Positions 2,693 through 64,000 of a stretch of 64,000 bases of DNA are shown piece after piece. A model generated the notes under the pieces. The model was not told where the DNA came from, did no database searches, and was given only the letters and a program-made list of their open reading frames with translations. The stretch is from Candidatus Falkowbacteria bacterium (GTDB taxonomy: Bacteria > Patescibacteriota > Patescibacteriia > Patescibacteriales > WJLG01), in assembly GCA_963747695.1 (NCBI GenBank), contig CAVVFV010000001.1, positions 36,466-100,465 on the forward strand, given 5' to 3'. Position 1 is the first letter of the stretch; each line of letters opens with the position of its first letter. A program made the translations under genes and the position numbers.

Positions 2693-4120
2693 ATGAAAAA
2701 TTTAAATATTTCAGACCTTAAAAGATTTAAGAGAAGAACGGTTGGTTTAGAGTTGGAAAATCCGCTGTTACGATCCAACGGCGAACCAATTGATTTTAAA
2801 ACAATCCAGAAAGTTTGGAAATCTTTTGTTAAAGAGGGGTGGTTACCTCGCATTGACCCGGCGATAAACAATGTTATTGATGGTTTAACCAAAAATTTTA
2901 ATGGGGTAGGCGCCAGTATAATATCAGACGGCGGGGCGGGAAATTTTGAATTGGCGATTACGCCTCAAGATAATCTTAATGTAACGAAGAGAATATATAA
3001 AAAAATACGCGCAGAAATAATTTCCATTATCAAAAAGCATGATTTGATTCTCGCCGGATTTGCAATTCAGCCTGGGCACATTAAAAATATGGATAATTTT
3101 CGTCGCAGAAATGCAATGTATTTGGCTTGGAACGAGCTCGGTTCTTCCGATATTTATGCTGGTGAAACGTCCGCAGCTATCAGTGCCGAGCAGGTGGGAA
3201 TAGGCATAAAACTGAAAGAATTCGTGGAAACTACCAATGAAGTGATGAAAATTACCGGATTGATTGTCGCCTTGACGGGAAATTCGCCAATTCATAACTG
3301 GAAGATATTGCCATACAAGGAATGGAGAATAATTTGTATGGGCCAGTTGAGGTTCGTTGGAAATGATGAGGGTTTTGAAAAATTAATCGGATTTCCCGAC
3401 CGGCCATTTTCTTCTGTCGCTGATTTTTTTGGTTACTACTGGGATTCTCCGTATATGGCATTGCCCTTATTGAGGAATGAAGAATGGATTATTCCCGATA
3501 AGAAAGTGAATTTTCTCCGGTTTTTTAGGGCAAAATATATCCCGGGGCATAACTTAAAGGGCGAAAAAATCAAGATAGTCCCGGATAAAAGCGATATTGA
3601 ATGGGCCTTTATACAAATGTGGCCCCATGCGAAACCGCATTTAGGATTGAATTTGAAAAAAATCAAACTCAGCGATTTTGTAAAAAATTTTGATAATGAT
3701 ACATTGGAGGATTATTTAGATGGGAAATTATCAAATTGCTACATTGAATGCCGGGCTGCGGGGGCGGCTCCGGTTGGAGAAGAATTGGCATTGCCGGCAT
3801 TAATGATGGGGGTCATTAACAACATTAAAGAACTTAAAAAAATTACGAAGAAATATGGTTGGAATGAATGGAAGAATCTTGTTTTTTCAGCGGCAGTTGC
3901 GGGCTTGGACGCCAAGATTAAAGGAAAGAGCATAAAGCCACTACTCAATGATTTATATAGCTGCGCCATGGCCGGATTAAAAAAGAGAAATCTCGGAGAA
4001 GAAAAATATCTGAAAGATATTTTAAAAAGGATTAAATCCGGGGAAAATCCCGCCGATACAGCTTTGGGTAAGTTTAAAGCCGGCAAGAGTAACTTTTTAA
4101 AATATATAGCCTATAAATAA
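2693..4120 (+). CDS. glutamate-cysteine ligase family 2 (GCS2)-like ATP-dependent carboxylate-amine ligase
   Basis: N-terminal GLELENPLL and SIISDGGAGNFELAITPQ resemble the GxExE and LEPGGQxELSxxP motifs of GCS2/plant-type GshA enzymes. Confidence 0.6.
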   Translation: MKNLNISDLKRFKRRTVGLELENPLLRSNGEPIDFKTIQKVWKSFVKEGWLPRIDPAINNVIDGLTKNFNGVGASIISDGGAGNFELAITPQDNLNVTKRIYKKIRAEIISIIKKHDLILAGFAIQPGHIKNMDNFRRRNAMYLAWNELGSSDIYAGETSAAISAEQVGIGIKLKEFVETTNEVMKITGLIVALTGNSPIHNWKILPYKEWRIICMGQLRFVGNDEGFEKLIGFPDRPFSSVADFFGYYWDSPYMALPLLRNEEWIIPDKKVNFLRFFRAKYIPGHNLKGEKIKIVPDKSDIEWAFIQMWPHAKPHLGLNLKKIKLSDFVKNFDNDTLEDYLDGKLSNCYIECRAAGAAPVGEELALPALMMGVINNIKELKKITKKYGWNEWKNLVFSAAVAGLDAKIKGKSIKPLLNDLYSCAMAGLKKRNLGEEKYLKDILKRIKSGENPADTALGKFKAGKSNFLKYIAYK

Positions 4121-4184
4121 TTTATTTGTTGAAAAATATCAAAAGTAAATAAAAAAGTATTCTAAATATTAAAAAAATAAATCT

Positions 4185-61652: not shown

Positions 61653-62446
61653 TGCCGATGTATAACATAATCCCGCTAATTTTGATTTGTATCAGCCTAT
61701 TCATTATTATTGTCATTGTCGTGCGGAAATTTCCCGCGCTGGCTAATATTGATGTGGAAAATATGCCGGCGGAAAAGGAAGCCCGCTTCAAAGAACAGAT
61801 TATTACCGGCCGGATGCAAAAGAGCATGGCCAAGGGGAAGGCCCGGCTGACCAAGTTCTTTGGTTTTATCGGCGGTTGGATCGGCACGCTGTTCAAGTTC
61901 ACCCAGAATAAATTGCAGGAGGCCAAAAAGAATTACAGCCAGCCGGCCGCGCTGCCGGTCGAGGATAAGAAAACGATGATCGAAGGGCTGCTGGCCAAGA
62001 ATTCCGTCTTGGATGACCGGGAAAATTTTGAGGAAAAAGAAACCAACCTGATCAAGATAATCGAGTTGGATCCGCGCCATGCGGAAGCTTTCATCGCTTT
62101 GGGGAGCTTGTATGCGGCAAATAAAAAATATGAAGAAGGGAAGCAAGCTTTTGCCCACGTCTTGAAACTCTTGGGCAATGAAGAATCCGACCAGCAATCC
62201 GAGGTTTATTACGATCTGGCAGCGATCTATCGGGATACGGGCGAAGCCGCGAGTTCTCTCGAGACCATCAAGATGGCGGCCAAACTGGCGCCGAACAATC
62301 CGCGCTATCTTGACTCTCTCTTGGAAATAAGTATAATTAATAAAGATAAAATTACCGCCCAAGATGCCCTTGATAAGCTATCTTCGGTTAATCCGGAAAA
62401 TGGCAAATTGGCCGAATTCAAAGATCAAATCGAATCTTTGGCATAG
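61652..62446 (+). CDS. membrane-anchored TPR-repeat protein
   Basis: The N-terminal hydrophobic segment is IIPLILICISLFIIIVIVV. TPR-like repeats include AEAFIALGSLYAANKKYEEGKQAF and YYDLAAIYRDTGE. ATG 61652 is preferred; the track's start reads through the repeat. Confidence 0.6.
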   Translation: MPMYNIIPLILICISLFIIIVIVVRKFPALANIDVENMPAEKEARFKEQIITGRMQKSMAKGKARLTKFFGFIGGWIGTLFKFTQNKLQEAKKNYSQPAALPVEDKKTMIEGLLAKNSVLDDRENFEEKETNLIKIIELDPRHAEAFIALGSLYAANKKYEEGKQAFAHVLKLLGNEESDQQSEVYYDLAAIYRDTGEAASSLETIKMAAKLAPNNPRYLDSLLEISIINKDKITAQDALDKLSSVNPENGKLAEFKDQIESLA

Positions 62447-62535
62447 AATATTATGTCGCGGTTAGCCGCCTGGAGGCGGCATTTTTAGTAAAAAGCTCGC
62501 TAACGAATCGAAAATATAACTTCGAAAATTGAAAT

Positions 62536-62735
62536 GCCGTTGTAGCTCAGCTGCCCCGCCCACTGATGGGGCGGGGTAAAGTTGAGCATCTCGGGTTCAT
62601 GCAATTTTAGAGTTATTCAGGAAAAAATATAGTTTGCCGTTGTAGCTCAGCTGCCCCGCCCACTGATGGGGCGGGGTAAAGTTGAGCATCTCGGGTTCAT
62701 GCAATTTTAGAGTTATTCAGGAAAAAATATAGTTT
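62536..62735 (+). repeat. two perfect 100-bp tandem repeats, each a truncated tRNA-Thr copy with a GC hairpin inserted in the D-loop
   Basis: Units 62536-62635 and 62636-62735 are identical. Each begins gccgttgtagctcagctg (the first 18 nt of the tRNA), followed by ccccgcccactgatggggcgggg. Confidence 0.9.
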
Positions 62736-62808
62736 GCCGTTGTAGCTCAGCTGGTAGAGCACCTCCATGGTAAGGAGGGGGTCTCGGGTCCGATTCCCGA
62801 CAACGGCT
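62736..62808 (+). tRNA. tRNA-Thr (anticodon GGT)
   Basis: Hand-folded cloverleaf of 73 nt. The acceptor stem is gccgttg/caacggc, the D stem gctc/gagc, the anticodon stem cctcc/ggagg with loop atGGTaa, and the T stem tcggg/cccga. CCA is not encoded. Confidence 0.85.
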
Positions 62809-62809
62809 C

Positions 62810-63097
62810 ATGGTTTACACCTATCTTATAAAAAGTTTGCCAAGCGGTAATTTTTATGTAGGTATAACAGATAATCCGCAAAGGAGATTGAAAGAACATA
62901 ATTCTGGAAAAGTTGACGCCACAAGAAGTAATCGGCCTTATGAACTTAAATATTTGAAGAAGCATCTAGATTACACTGAGGCAAGAAAGCATGAAAAGTG
63001 GTTAAAAAAGAAAAACCGTGAATATAAAGAAAAATTGTTTTTAGCTGCCCCGCCCACTGACAGGGCGGGTTTACCGCGCCCGTTCGGGACGGGGTAA
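62810..63097 (+). CDS. small stand-alone GIY-YIG nuclease family protein (YhbQ/UPF0213-like)
   Basis: VYTYLIKSLPSGNFYVGITDNPQRRLKEHNSGK...RPYELKY...EARKHEKWLKK carries the GIY, YVG, R and E motifs. The ATG starts 2 nt after the tRNA. The last ~19 codons read into tRNA-like DNA. Confidence 0.8.
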   Translation: MVYTYLIKSLPSGNFYVGITDNPQRRLKEHNSGKVDATRSNRPYELKYLKKHLDYTEARKHEKWLKKKNREYKEKLFLAAPPTDRAGLPRPFGTG

Positions 63098-63187
63098 AGT
63101 AGAGCACCTCCATAAATTTAAGAAATTTTGCGGTTTCGGGTCCGACTTGTCCCGCCCTTTATGGGCGGGATTCCCGACAACGGCTCA
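63042..63187 (+). pseudogene. decayed tRNA-Thr copy with GC hairpin insertions in the D-loop and T-loop and a replaced anticodon arm
   Basis: tagctg[ccccgcccactgacagggcggg...acgggg]taaagtagagcacctccat...ttcgggtccga[cttgtcccgccctttatgggcggg]attcccgacaacggctca. The unbracketed parts match the intact tRNA. Confidence 0.7.
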
Positions 63188-63382
63188 GATTCAAATAAAA
63201 AGTTAAAAATAAAAAAGAAAAAATAGCCTGACTTGATATTAATAGCGGGTTAAACACGGTGAAAATCGCCAATTTTGAGGGCGGTTTTTTTATTGACAAT
63301 TTTGCGATTATTTTGTTAAGATAAAAAACCGTCAAGAGCACGCACATTCACACATTTACCATATAAAAAGGAAGGGGTTACT

Positions 63383-64000
63383 ATGTCGTGGTCCGCTAAA
63401 GAGCTGGTTATCGGTGTTGATGTTGGCGCCGGAACCATCAAAGGAGCTTTGTTCAATCCGGATAACTGGGAAATGATTCCGGAATCTTTAATCAAAGTTG
63501 CCACGGAACCGAAAAATGGCGTCGAATCGGTTACCAGGAAAATTTTATCAATAATGAACGGATTAGTGAAAAAAGCGGCCGGAACCAAGATCAAATGCGC
63601 TGGTTTATGCATGCCTGGTTCACCCGATCCGATCAGTGGCAAGATCAATGGCAATTGCGCCAATATCCCCGGCGCGGACGATTACAGTTTTCTGGATCCG
63701 CTGGCGAAATTTTTTCCCTTTTTGATTTTCGCCTTCAATGATTCGGGCTCACATCTCTACGGTGAATATAAACTGGGCGCCGGCGTCGGCTTCACTTATC
63801 TGGTCGGGCTCGCCCTGGGCACGGGAATCGGAGGAGGAACTATTATCAAAGGTGAATTGATCAGCGGCAACAAACAAGCGGCCAGCGAATTCGGCCATCT
63901 CAAGGTTGATTATTCAGCCGATGCCCCGATATGTTCGCGCGGAGACCAGGGTTGTCTTGAATCATTTGCCGGAACGGCGGAGATAAAAAAACGCTGGGCT
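63383..64000 (+). CDS. ROK family sugar kinase (glucokinase-like), 3' end runs off the window; absent from the ORF track
   Basis: Hand translation gives MSWSAKELVIGVDVGAGTIKGALF...GLALGTGIGGGTII...EFGHLKV...CSRGDQGCLESFAG (ROK zinc motif). SD aaaggaagggg lies upstream. Confidence 0.8.
   Translation, partial: MSWSAKELVIGVDVGAGTIKGALFNPDNWEMIPESLIKVATEPKNGVESVTRKILSIMNGLVKKAAGTKIKCAGLCMPGSPDPISGKINGNCANIPGADDYSFLDPLAKFFPFLIFAFNDSGSHLYGEYKLGAGVGFTYLVGLALGTGIGGGTIIKGELISGNKQAASEFGHLKVDYSADAPICSRGDQGCLESFAGTAEIKKRWA

Follow-up and report, generated by a model that had tools for sequence, protein, structure and literature searches.

Positions 62536–63187 of a 64,000-nucleotide stretch of the genome of a Candidatus Falkowbacteria bacterium (GCA_963747695.1, contig CAVVFV010000001.1, positions 36,466 to 100,465; the whole of this 64-kb stretch is referred to below as the window) carry an intact tRNA-Thr(GGT) gene, a gene for a minimal GIY-YIG nuclease, and fragments of the same tRNA gene interrupted by short GC-rich palindromes. 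Judged by sequence comparison, the whole region is one ancestral 74-nt tRNA-Thr(GGT) gene expanded about nine-fold, since syntenic relatives show empty, intermediate and occupied states of the site. It is best read as housing a cassette made up of the minimal GIY-YIG gene, a GC palindrome and an intact tRNA of the same anticodon that would keep the cell supplied. We lean, by a little, towards the view that this is a homing-like selfish cassette, in which conserved tRNA segments would serve as homology arms and a rescue tRNA is supplied. Such a cassette would be, in kind, a free-standing homing-endonuclease-like selfish element, of a family undescribed in the searchable literature: no account of the arrangement was found in searches on GIY-YIG proteins with tRNA, on Patescibacteria or the Candidate Phyla Radiation (CPR), on UPF0213/YhbQ proteins, or on hairpins.

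The features of the locus all lie on the + strand. It opens with two identical 100-bp units (62536–62635 and 62636–62735), each representing the displaced 5' head of the resident tRNA-Thr gene. Tandem Repeats Finder, like find_repeats, reports 2.2 copies of this unit at 62535–62753, with 100% identity as assembled, and so bears out the two perfect repeats, each a tRNA head with a GC palindrome, described in the initial annotation. Nucleotides 1–18 of the tRNA open each unit (62536–62553 and 62636–62653) and are followed, between G18 and G19, by the 27-nt GC palindrome CCCCGCCC-ACTGAT-GGGGCGGGG-TAAA (62554–62580 and 62654–62680), which has 7-nt arms and a 7-nt loop. There follow in unit 1 a remnant of the 3' strand of the D-stem, GTTGAGCA (62581–62588), a T-arm remnant, TCTCGGGT (62589–62596), and a spacer with a promoter-like TTTAGA-16-TATAGT (62606–62633); each promoter-like site, that of unit 2 being at 62706–62733, stops 2 nt short of the next tRNA head, which after unit 2 is the intact tRNA. 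This tRNA-Thr(GGT) occupies 62736–62809 and is supported by ARAGORN, Rfam and its cloverleaf fold. Directly abutting it is the GIY-YIG open reading frame (ORF; 62810–63097), an adjacency proposed at the outset and confirmed by ARAGORN, Rfam and Pfam. The ORF encodes 95 amino acids, its TAA stop codon (63095–63097) falling within the flank of a palindrome, and its 3' end runs into the displaced 3' body of the resident tRNA gene (63042–63187). A perfect 19-nt direct repeat, GATTCCCGACAACGGCTCA, which corresponds to the T-loop and 3' T-stem together with the 3' end of the acceptor stem, brackets the ORF (left copy 62792–62810, right copy 63169–63187); a crossover between the two copies would excise exactly the nuclease gene, with a single intact tRNA remaining. 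No tyrosine or serine recombinase is encoded between these repeats, the GIY-YIG gene being the only domain-bearing ORF there. The native downstream flank of the original tRNA gene, with its terminator-like hairpin cgccaattttgagggcggttttttt, lies at 63267–63292 and marks the right-hand boundary of the remodelled region; the same sequence is found directly 3' of the tRNA in three related loci (L139, L146 and L147).

The tRNA-Thr(GGT) at 62736–62809 is the only tRNA that ARAGORN finds in the whole window. Rfam scores it at 63.7 bits (62736–62808), and a search of 62300–63400 at E ≤ 10 gave nothing else credible and no intron family. It folds as a clean cloverleaf, and its sequence is identical to that of the tRNA at the unoccupied site of the relative L137. 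The 3' body has lost its 5' acceptor strand, and of the anticodon arm the 3' half is missing; it comprises in order a 5' D-arm remnant, TAGCTG (63042–63047); two D-loop palindromes (63048–63069 and 63070–63098); the 3' D-stem with the 5' strand of the anticodon stem, GTAGAGCACCTCCAT (63099–63113); an 18-nt filler in place of the anticodon loop and 3' stem (63114–63131); the 5' T-stem, GGTTTCGGGTCCGA (63132–63145); a T-loop palindrome (63146–63169); and the 3' T-stem, 3' acceptor strand and tail (63170–63187), with ATTCCCGACAACGGCTCA extending to 63187. A third tRNA-like copy had been correctly recognised here in the initial annotation, but what was taken for a longer GC insertion in its D-loop is in fact two palindromes in tandem. 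Neither ARAGORN nor Rfam recognises the flanking copies in the window as tRNA, the sole call being that at 62736–62809, so the downstream copy is not the normal tRNA that a simple array would contain; where ARAGORN does make calls on equivalent copies, in L066 and L130, the acceptor stems are mismatched.

The same chromosomal site in relatives was reached via homologues of the upstream TPR protein, and the loci share the gene order ScpB – hypothetical – S11 peptidase – TIM – TPR – X – ROK kinase, where X is the site in question. In L141 (TPR identity 82%) X is one intact tRNA-Thr(GGT) with its terminator and nothing more. In L137 (85%) it is again an intact tRNA, identical to that of the window and with no cassette, in an altered context; the flank ..cttcgaaaattgagaag directly upstream of this tRNA is identical to the flank that precedes unit 1 in the window, upstream of 62536 (cttcgaaaattgaaat). 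An intermediate state is seen in L139, L145, L146 and L147 (82–86%), which contain the 5' head (nt 1–18), a longer GC palindrome, TAGAGCACTTCC, a spacer of about 42 nt, the intact tRNA and the native terminator, without a nuclease. The spacer is homologous to that of the window units (L139, L146 and L147), the terminator is the same as at 63267–63292, and these relatives carry one unit where the window has two. The nuclease-bearing state, consisting of tRNA, nuclease and 3' copy, is found in L148, a 619-bp contig from another sample that breaks 30 nt upstream of the tRNA and for which a TPR identity is not applicable. Its nuclease is 82% identical to that of the window, with which it shares the junction GGCTC-ATGGTTTACACC, a 5-nt deletion in the D-arm remnant (TTTTTAGCTG) and the position of the T-loop palindrome; its 3' copy has one D-loop palindrome versus two in the window. 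The window site thus combines elements of the intermediate and the nuclease-bearing states, and occupied and unoccupied alleles of one site coexist among relatives, as is characteristic of homing endonucleases. With graded states at the same site and recurrence in independent assemblies, the tRNA-like flanks are not a one-off assembly duplication.

Two of the relatives show further changes at this site. In L137 (GCA_028707065.1, JAQTUZ010000009.1, 4540–5017) a 116-aa 23S_rRNA_IVP gene (PF05635) lies about 50 nt after the tRNA in place of the ROK gene, and a 179-aa ORF lies between the TPR gene and the tRNA, which makes the site look like a general insertion hot spot. In L143 (TPR identity 80%) the 95-nt spacer between TPR and ROK (4078–4171) contains no tRNA-Thr, so the tRNA has moved or been lost in one lineage.

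The association of nuclease and tRNA recurs well beyond this site. Sixteen loci from species-representative genomes were picked by protein similarity alone, and 13 of them have an intact same-strand tRNA within about 150 nt of the nuclease ORF. Seven anticodons are represented among the 13 (Thr-CGT three times; Thr-GGT, Thr-TGT, Val-GAC and Lys-TTT twice each; Phe and Ile-TAT once each). By our own calculation the probability of such adjacency by chance is about 1e-12, assuming a chance of about 8% per locus from the density of tRNA genes in the flanks. The palindrome is present in all 16. About 30 further true loci came from metagenomes scanned for the signature of D-arm plus palindrome; the pattern used, AGCTCAGCTKSCCCSSCC, retrieves mostly irrelevant GC-rich DNA, and only the roughly 30 matches with tAGCTCAGCTTGCCCCGCC or close variants were used. 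These add Asn, Met, Ile-GAT, Lys-CTT and Val-CAC, making about a dozen tRNA species in total, and about 40% of them have a nuclease within 700 nt. A scan of viral contigs for the 19-mer of D-arm plus palindrome gave no match. The composite architecture is found altogether in more than 40 independent assemblies from different projects, and all the recovered loci are from CPR/Patescibacteria-like assemblies. The adjacency of nuclease and tRNA noted in the initial annotation is therefore strongly recurrent, both at the homology-chosen loci and in metagenomes. The records for L005, L007, L011 and L014 are titled 'uncultured Gammaproteobacteria bacterium'; their low GC content and CPR-like local genes suggest that these bins are mislabelled or contaminated.

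The loci fall into a small number of architectures. In type A (L001, L003, L007, L009, L027, L130 and L148) an intact tRNA is followed by the nuclease ORF, whose ATG lies 0–15 nt after the tRNA 3' end, and then by the D-arm with its palindrome and the rest of the same tRNA. In type B (L002, L005, L011 and L037) the 5' acceptor strand and D-arm of the host gene, with palindrome, precede the ORF, and the intact tRNA follows; the ORF ends inside the intact tRNA in L135, L037 and P0020. Full or nested forms retain both pieces of an outer tRNA, the resident one, that has been split at the D-loop. The D-arm with palindrome may then be duplicated around a segment consisting of spacer, inner tRNA and ORF (the window, L004, L066 and L080; in L120 and L134, of which only the upstream part was viewed, 5' head, inner tRNA and ORF were observed), or the inner tRNA may lie within the palindrome loop itself (L086, L090, L095, L116 and L119). 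L006 has an inner tRNA in a palindrome loop 3' of the ORF, its outer 5' acceptor strand not being found, and in L126 the inner tRNA sits in an anticodon-loop palindrome.

The join between nuclease gene and tRNA fragment is itself conserved. Endings of the type '(Q)LAPP', most of them with '..GGVK', occur in the window protein and in at least 13 of 49 database homologues, and many of 26 aligned proteins end ...KL-AQLAPP-x-GGVK. Such an ending is the translation of TAGCTCAGCTT-GCCCCGCC..GGCGGGG-TGAAG-TAG, a tRNA D-arm with the palindrome in its loop, and the stop codon of LAPP-ending ORFs is the TAG of the D-stem GTAGAGC; the KLAG(Q) endings of seven of the 49 homologues correspond to the other palindrome arm. 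The exact 20-mer TTAGCTCAGCTTGCCCCGCC, comprising the 5' half of the D-arm and the left arm of the palindrome, recurs while the ORF DNA upstream of it differs. The host D-loop in Phe loci is TAGCTCAGTGG, unlike TTAGCTCAGCTTGCCCCGCC, which therefore travels with the cassette. Conservation of the junction of ORF 3' end, D-arm and hairpin likewise means that it is not the product of random decay.

These observations bear directly on the most mundane explanation, that an ordinary tRNA array with decayed duplicates happens to lie beside an unrelated nuclease gene, or that the locus is an assembly artefact. Arrays of tRNA genes do exist, and assembly can create perfect 100-bp repeats; but the same composite architecture in so many independent assemblies, a junction conserved at the nucleotide level, the confinement of the palindromes to this one locus in 64 kb, and the single unit of the relatives against two in the window make this explanation scarcely credible, and for the locus as a whole it is effectively refuted. 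The 100-bp unit may have been collapsed or expanded in assembly, so that its true copy number may be one, two or more.

The palindromes conform to the consensus (C/T)TT(G/A)-CCCCGCC-loop-GGCGGGG-T(G/A)AA, are 20–27 nt long, and sit in the D-loop of the displaced copy at about G18/G19. When they were excised and the remainder aligned to the neighbouring intact tRNA, the primary palindrome of every one of about 35 copies fell within the D-loop, between nt 15 and 20. Secondary palindromes are found in the anticodon loop (L001, L007, L010 and L016), in the T-loop (the window and L148, L005, and at the loop boundary in L010) and in stems (L059, L014 and L003); by manual curation some 9–11 of 14 are in loops, against about 37% expected. 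Neither alignments nor inspection showed a target-site duplication at the palindromes, the flanking tRNA sequence being otherwise uninterrupted. The innermost arm pair covaries between C:G and T:A, and CCCCACC/GGTGGGG also occurs. The motif CCCGCCC-N(3–14)-GGGCGGG is present four times in the window and not at all in shuffled sequence; the four copies are all inside the tRNA locus, with none elsewhere. Among the fetched loci, too, nearly all such GC palindromes are at the tRNA/nuclease site, with isolated exceptions such as that at position 1863 of L008. Other palindrome types were encountered in passing. L126 and L127 have a second, longer D-loop type, GGCCCGCCCGC ... GCGGGCGGG, with a loop of about 30 nt, which in L127 goes with a much more divergent GIY-YIG protein (about 40% identity), and L139, L145 and L146 have another long variant; there may be several lineages of palindrome and nuclease.

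A rival explanation makes the palindromes the ends of the element. According to it the palindrome arms would be the terminal inverted repeats or recognition hairpins of a transposon whose cargo is a GIY-YIG gene, a tRNA gene or nothing, the last being a miniature non-autonomous copy; a structure-specific GIY-YIG nuclease would act like a transposase and cut the tips of hairpins or cruciforms and the single-stranded loops of tRNA-gene cloverleaves, by analogy with REP/RAYT systems or with insertion sequences that target the loops of palindromic units. It would account for the intact tRNAs within palindrome loops (L006, L086, L090, L095, L116 and L119, and the anticodon-loop palindrome of L126), the absence of target-site duplications, the bias of secondary palindromes towards anticodon and T loops, and the covariation within the arms. 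The occurrence of palindromes at every nuclease locus, with a nuclease at only about 40% of palindrome loci, resembles the relation of autonomous to non-autonomous elements. It is also consistent with three loci, L008 (2980–3240), L012 (2980–3273) and L013 (2950–3520), in which the ORF lies between inverted arms in opposite orientation, TTCACCCCGCC ... ORF ... GGCGGGGCAAG, and with the seven homologues with KLAG(Q) C-termini. Yet the nuclease gene of most tRNA loci is located between tRNA copies and not within the palindrome; the arms measure no more than 7–9 bp; loops vary between the copies of one locus, which are therefore not copies of one master; and, unlike the members of REP or miniature inverted-repeat transposable element (MITE) families, the palindromes are not dispersed in the window or, isolated exceptions aside, in the fetched loci. 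The combination of terminal inverted repeats with target-site duplication that marks DDE-type MITEs and insertion sequences (IS) was not found, and we know of no bacterial GIY-YIG transposase. On balance we regard such a transposon, the strongest of the rival explanations, as unlikely. In a related proposal, which we put forward tentatively and think a good deal less likely than not, palindromes and minimal GIY-YIG nuclease together would constitute a new class of prokaryotic mobile element, mobilised by the nuclease as a structure-specific enzyme, that has hairpin arms as its ends and is aimed at the single-stranded loops of structured-RNA genes. These would be the D, anticodon and T loops of tRNA and possibly the tips of rRNA stem-loops, and the cargo may include a whole replacement tRNA, making the host dependent on the element.

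The three loci with inverted arms differ from the others also in their surroundings. They have no tRNA and lie outside rRNA genes; the Rfam searches gave no RNA family other than tRNA. The ORF of L013 splits a small membrane gene, whose product has a transmembrane helix and a winged-helix C-terminus, and further palindromes lie downstream; the database proteins P0013 and P0024 appear to join the nuclease in frame to the C-terminus of the gene split in L013.

The window protein matches the Pfam GIY-YIG family PF01541 over residues 2–71 with 53.9 bits (cutoff 22.6; E = 2.2e-14), and its gene is the only GIY-YIG ORF in the window. An alignment of 26 sequences has G18, R26, H30, N31, R59 and E62 invariant and Y5 and Y16 nearly so, which fits an active GIY-YIG site, as far as sequence can indicate. 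The 49 database homologues are 40–82% identical and mostly 72–116 aa long, and those with a source name all come from metagenome-assembled genomes of Parcubacteria/Patescibacteria. In an AlphaFold2 (AF2) model the core (residues 1–76) has a predicted local distance difference test score (pLDDT) of about 90 and the secondary structure E2–9, E15–20, H23–32, E44–52, H55–67; the tail (residues 77–95; pLDDT below 50), which is the translation of the tRNA D-arm remnant and the GC palindromes, is disordered. A profile search of PDB sequences gave the UPF0213 proteins 1YWL (1.9e-11) and 1ZG2 (4.1e-11), followed by Slx1 (1e-5 to 1e-4). Foldseek likewise placed UPF0213 BH0048 and Slx1 at the top, with probability 1.00, the I-TevI catalytic domain reaching an E-value of only about 0.7. 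By sequence and predicted fold the protein is thus a minimal, single-domain GIY-YIG nuclease of UPF0213/Slx1 type. A C-terminal DNA-binding domain of the I-TevI/Seg kind is absent from the 95-aa ORF, the score against the group I intron endonuclease model TIGR01453 of NCBIfam is 15.9 bits (cutoff 56.05), PADLOC returned no defence-system match, and PHROGs gave weak homing-endonuclease matches.

In six loci the intact and the disrupted copy are different functional alleles with compensatory differences in their stems. The acceptor stems of outer and inner copy are, respectively, GCCTGGG/CCCAGGC and GCTGGAG/CTCCAGC in L119, GCCGTTG/CAACGGC and GCCGATG/CATCGGC in L095, GCGCGAT/ATCGCGC and GGGCGGT/ACCGCCC in L004, GCCGATG/CATCGGC and GCCAGTG/CACTGGC in L080, and GCTGGGA/TCCCAGC and GTCGAGA/TCTCGAC in L066; in L003 the T-stems are GCCAG/CTGGC and GCGGG/CCCGC. 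It is the outer copy that runs on into the chromosomal flanks, which makes the inner one the newcomer, and in view of the compensatory differences the intact tRNA is often an imported replacement allele. Transfer between tRNA species is suggested by the nucleases, the closest pairs of which occupy different tRNA genes: those of L011 (Thr-TGT) and L005 (Lys-TTT) are 82% identical and have the same left junction, GTAGAGCAGATACTTATGGAGGGA, and the pair from L004 (Val) and L066 (Phe) shares 74% identity. At the ORF end, the acceptor heptamer of tRNA-Phe, GCCGAGG, is present not only in the Phe locus L010 but also in the Thr locus L080.

Several loci bear signs of instability. In L010 the intact tRNA-Phe is followed (860–1800) by a tandem array with a 390-bp period, each unit of which comprises a nuclease ORF and a tRNA-Phe-like copy with palindromes in the D-loop, in the anticodon loop and at the edge of the T-loop. 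In L014 3' fragments are repeated, and the 26-nt palindrome unit is present once more in L116 than in L095, which otherwise matches it (two versus one extra copies). Together with the window units and the difference between L148 and the window, these signatures fit repeated breakage and repair.

A homing-like cassette might work as follows. The nuclease would break or nick an unoccupied tRNA gene, or a palindrome or cruciform, and the cassette would be copied from the occupied allele during repair. The D-arm, T-arm and acceptor end duplicated on either side of the nuclease gene would act as portable homology arms, allowing occasional jumps between tRNA species. The palindrome would inactivate the displaced copy as a tRNA, and probably also as a target or recombination partner, so stabilising the insertion. 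Read-through from the tRNA promoter probably accounts for expression of the nuclease, and because the ATG follows the tRNA so closely in type A loci, tRNA 3' processing may release a near-leaderless mRNA; the ORF has no room for a promoter of its own, and co-transcription with the tRNA would be the simplest reading. The two perfect 100-bp units of the window may be a recent product of slippage or unequal recombination between repeated tRNA heads, each unit bringing a promoter-like site for the copy downstream.

A number of points weigh against this scheme. We infer the role of the nuclease, its cleavage site, the role of the hairpin and the mobility of the cassette from architecture. The protein has only the catalytic core of about 76 aa with no DNA-binding domain, so sequence-specific homing of the I-TevI/Seg type is not to be expected, and Slx1, the nearest relative that has been characterised, is specific for DNA structure. 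In the intact copy the D-arm is still whole; were the D-arm the target, an occupied locus would lack immunity. Homology arms of 10–20 nt are very short for jumps between tRNA species. The nucleases of L008, L012 and L013 are not at tRNAs, their ORFs lying between inverted palindrome arms, and about 60% of the D-arm plus palindrome loci retrieved by DNA pattern lack a nuclease gene within 700 nt; simple homing fails to explain either group. Lastly, the tRNAs nested in palindrome loops (L006, L095 and L119) better fit hairpin-targeted insertion. Together these weak points favour the hairpin-ended transposon as the chief alternative. The interpretation offered in the initial annotation, a homing or integrating element, is supported but incomplete: it did not include the conserved junction, the often imported tRNA, the hairpins as part of the system, or the minimal UPF0213/Slx1-type nature of the nuclease. 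Of the activities proposed there, targeting and duplication of a tRNA gene, to which replacement may be added, find support, and repair of the tRNA gene finds none.

The perfect 19-nt repeats around the ORF also suggest a passive mode of movement, in which a segment consisting of a tRNA, or part of one, and the ORF would integrate and excise in Campbell fashion by host recombination between tRNA repeats, the nuclease being a passenger or addiction factor and the palindromes secondary invaders of the redundant copy. A crossover would regenerate a clean tRNA gene as in L141 and L137; the order tRNA, ORF, tRNA-like sequence, including the cases L135, L037 and P0020, is what a single crossover with a tRNA-bearing circle should give; and the tandem multimers of L010, with their period of 390, would also be expected. 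Such a model leaves unexplained, however, the constant cargo of a conserved nuclease that by its sequence is catalytically intact, the single D-loop position of the palindrome in about 35 copies, and the persistence and transfer of a circle of 0.3–0.4 kb, and the scan of viral contigs found no such elements. We consider it distinctly improbable.

It might be supposed instead that the displaced copies are functional RNAs, either split or expanded tRNAs held together by the GC helix once the inner tRNA or mRNA has been removed, which can be likened to the split tRNAs of Nanoarchaeum and to RNase III-excised intervening sequences, or else a tRNA-like element at the 3' end with a part in processing or stabilising the nuclease mRNA. 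Some outer copies (L119, L004) do have all stems intact apart from the D-loop insertion, palindromes prefer loops, the D-arm with its palindrome folds as RNA into one long hairpin (z about −3.5), and in nested forms the palindrome stem is coaxial with the inner acceptor stem, giving a 17-bp helix in L095 and L006; GIY-YIG ORFs in non-intron insertions at the tips of CPR rRNA stem-loops (PMC11270868) would be in the same vein. Most copies, though, lack a contiguous 5' acceptor strand, many (the window, L001, L007, L010 and L016) have lost the anticodon or have a palindrome in its loop, and L095, L080 and L001 have mismatched stems. There is always an intact isoacceptor next to them, and the displaced copies are either rejected by ARAGORN and Rfam, as in the window, or called with broken acceptor stems, as in L066 and L130. 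A functional role for these RNAs is accordingly very improbable. No bulge–helix–bulge motif was evident by eye, and an intron of that kind was considered and rejected on inspection of the palindrome flanks (3-bp CTT/AAG, G/TG bulges, 7-bp stem).

The nearest precedent for a homing-like cassette is SegB of phage T4, a GIY-YIG homing endonuclease. Its gene lies within a tRNA cluster and spreads with flanking tRNA genes into genomes that lack it, and its recognition site takes in the T-psi-C stem-loop, a conserved tRNA motif (PMC2330249). The present loci resemble it in having a GIY-YIG gene among tRNA genes and a presence/absence polymorphism among relatives. They differ in that SegB is a two-domain, sequence-specific phage enzyme, whereas here a putative nuclease core of about 76 aa from the UPF0213/Slx1 branch is encoded on cellular CPR chromosomes, the resident tRNA gene is split and replaced, and GC palindromes are integral to the system. 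In size, single-domain architecture, catalytic residues and best sequence and fold matches the nuclease resembles UPF0213/YhbQ (1YWL, 1ZG2) and Slx1. Slx1 acts together with Slx4 on branched DNA in eukaryotes, a preference that would also suit the hairpin-ended transposon considered above. To our knowledge, no function has been assigned to UPF0213 proteins and no genomic association is known for them, and a literature search gave nothing relevant; neither they nor Slx1 are known to be linked to tRNA genes or palindromes.

Comparison with other mobile elements is instructive. Cargo within hairpin loops recalls those IS elements that, like IS1397, insert into the loops of palindromic units. Islands and prophages integrated at tRNA genes similarly show direct repeats of the tRNA 3' end (19 nt here), have tRNA function kept by a supplied copy and leave a displaced fragment; the present element, by contrast, has no integrase, is only 0.3–0.6 kb long, often supplies a whole replacement tRNA, and breaks the gene at the D-loop or duplicates it entirely rather than using an att core at the 3' end. 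REP/RAYT REPtrons (PMC2817692) also combine short GC-rich palindromes with a small nuclease gene, which they sometimes flank, without target-site duplications. Here, however, the nuclease is GIY-YIG and not HUH/Y1, the palindromes are confined to tRNA-derived sequence and per-genome copy number appears low, and the many dispersed extragenic copies that define REP/RAYT systems were not seen, the four copies in 64 kb all being in the tRNA locus. Comparable, too, are the GIY-YIG ORFs reported in non-intron insertions at stem-loops of CPR rRNA genes (PMC11270868): the phylum is the same, and in both cases small GIY-YIG ORFs lie inside structured-RNA genes without being group I or II introns, but those insertions are in rRNA genes, and no hairpin or tRNA association is reported for them. 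A survey of Patescibacteria tRNA genes covers group I and II introns only and mentions neither GIY-YIG genes nor hairpins (PMC13011429).

Because CPR genomes are tiny, an element that breaks a tRNA gene has to solve the problem of lethality, and the cassette appears to do so by bringing or duplicating a working copy, the window having only one tRNA in 64 kb. If this is true, it would be a compact strategy of disruption and rescue otherwise seen piecemeal, in integrative islands and in phage Seg loci. Since inner and outer alleles differ, the cassette could also drive horizontal replacement of tRNA genes, and it would explain tRNA pseudogene fragments and contig breaks beside tRNAs in CPR assemblies. 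For the widespread and uncharacterised UPF0213 proteins it suggests a function that can be tested, which would be their first biological role if the proposed new class of mobile element were real, and there may be a link with the GIY-YIG insertions in CPR rRNA genes, which so far lack an explanation. Practical interest would attach to a 76-aa nuclease whose target is a particular DNA structure or sequence.

Two minor observations may be added. GC skew is positive in 31 of the 32 2-kb intervals of the window, with the cumulative skew climbing almost monotonically, and the whole of the window seems to belong to a single replichore, most of its genes being on the + strand. In L054, two different small GIY-YIG ORFs flank a tRNA-Tyr gene 700 nt upstream of the pattern match and upstream of a split tRNA-Thr(TGT), and four tRNAs lie within 1.7 kb.

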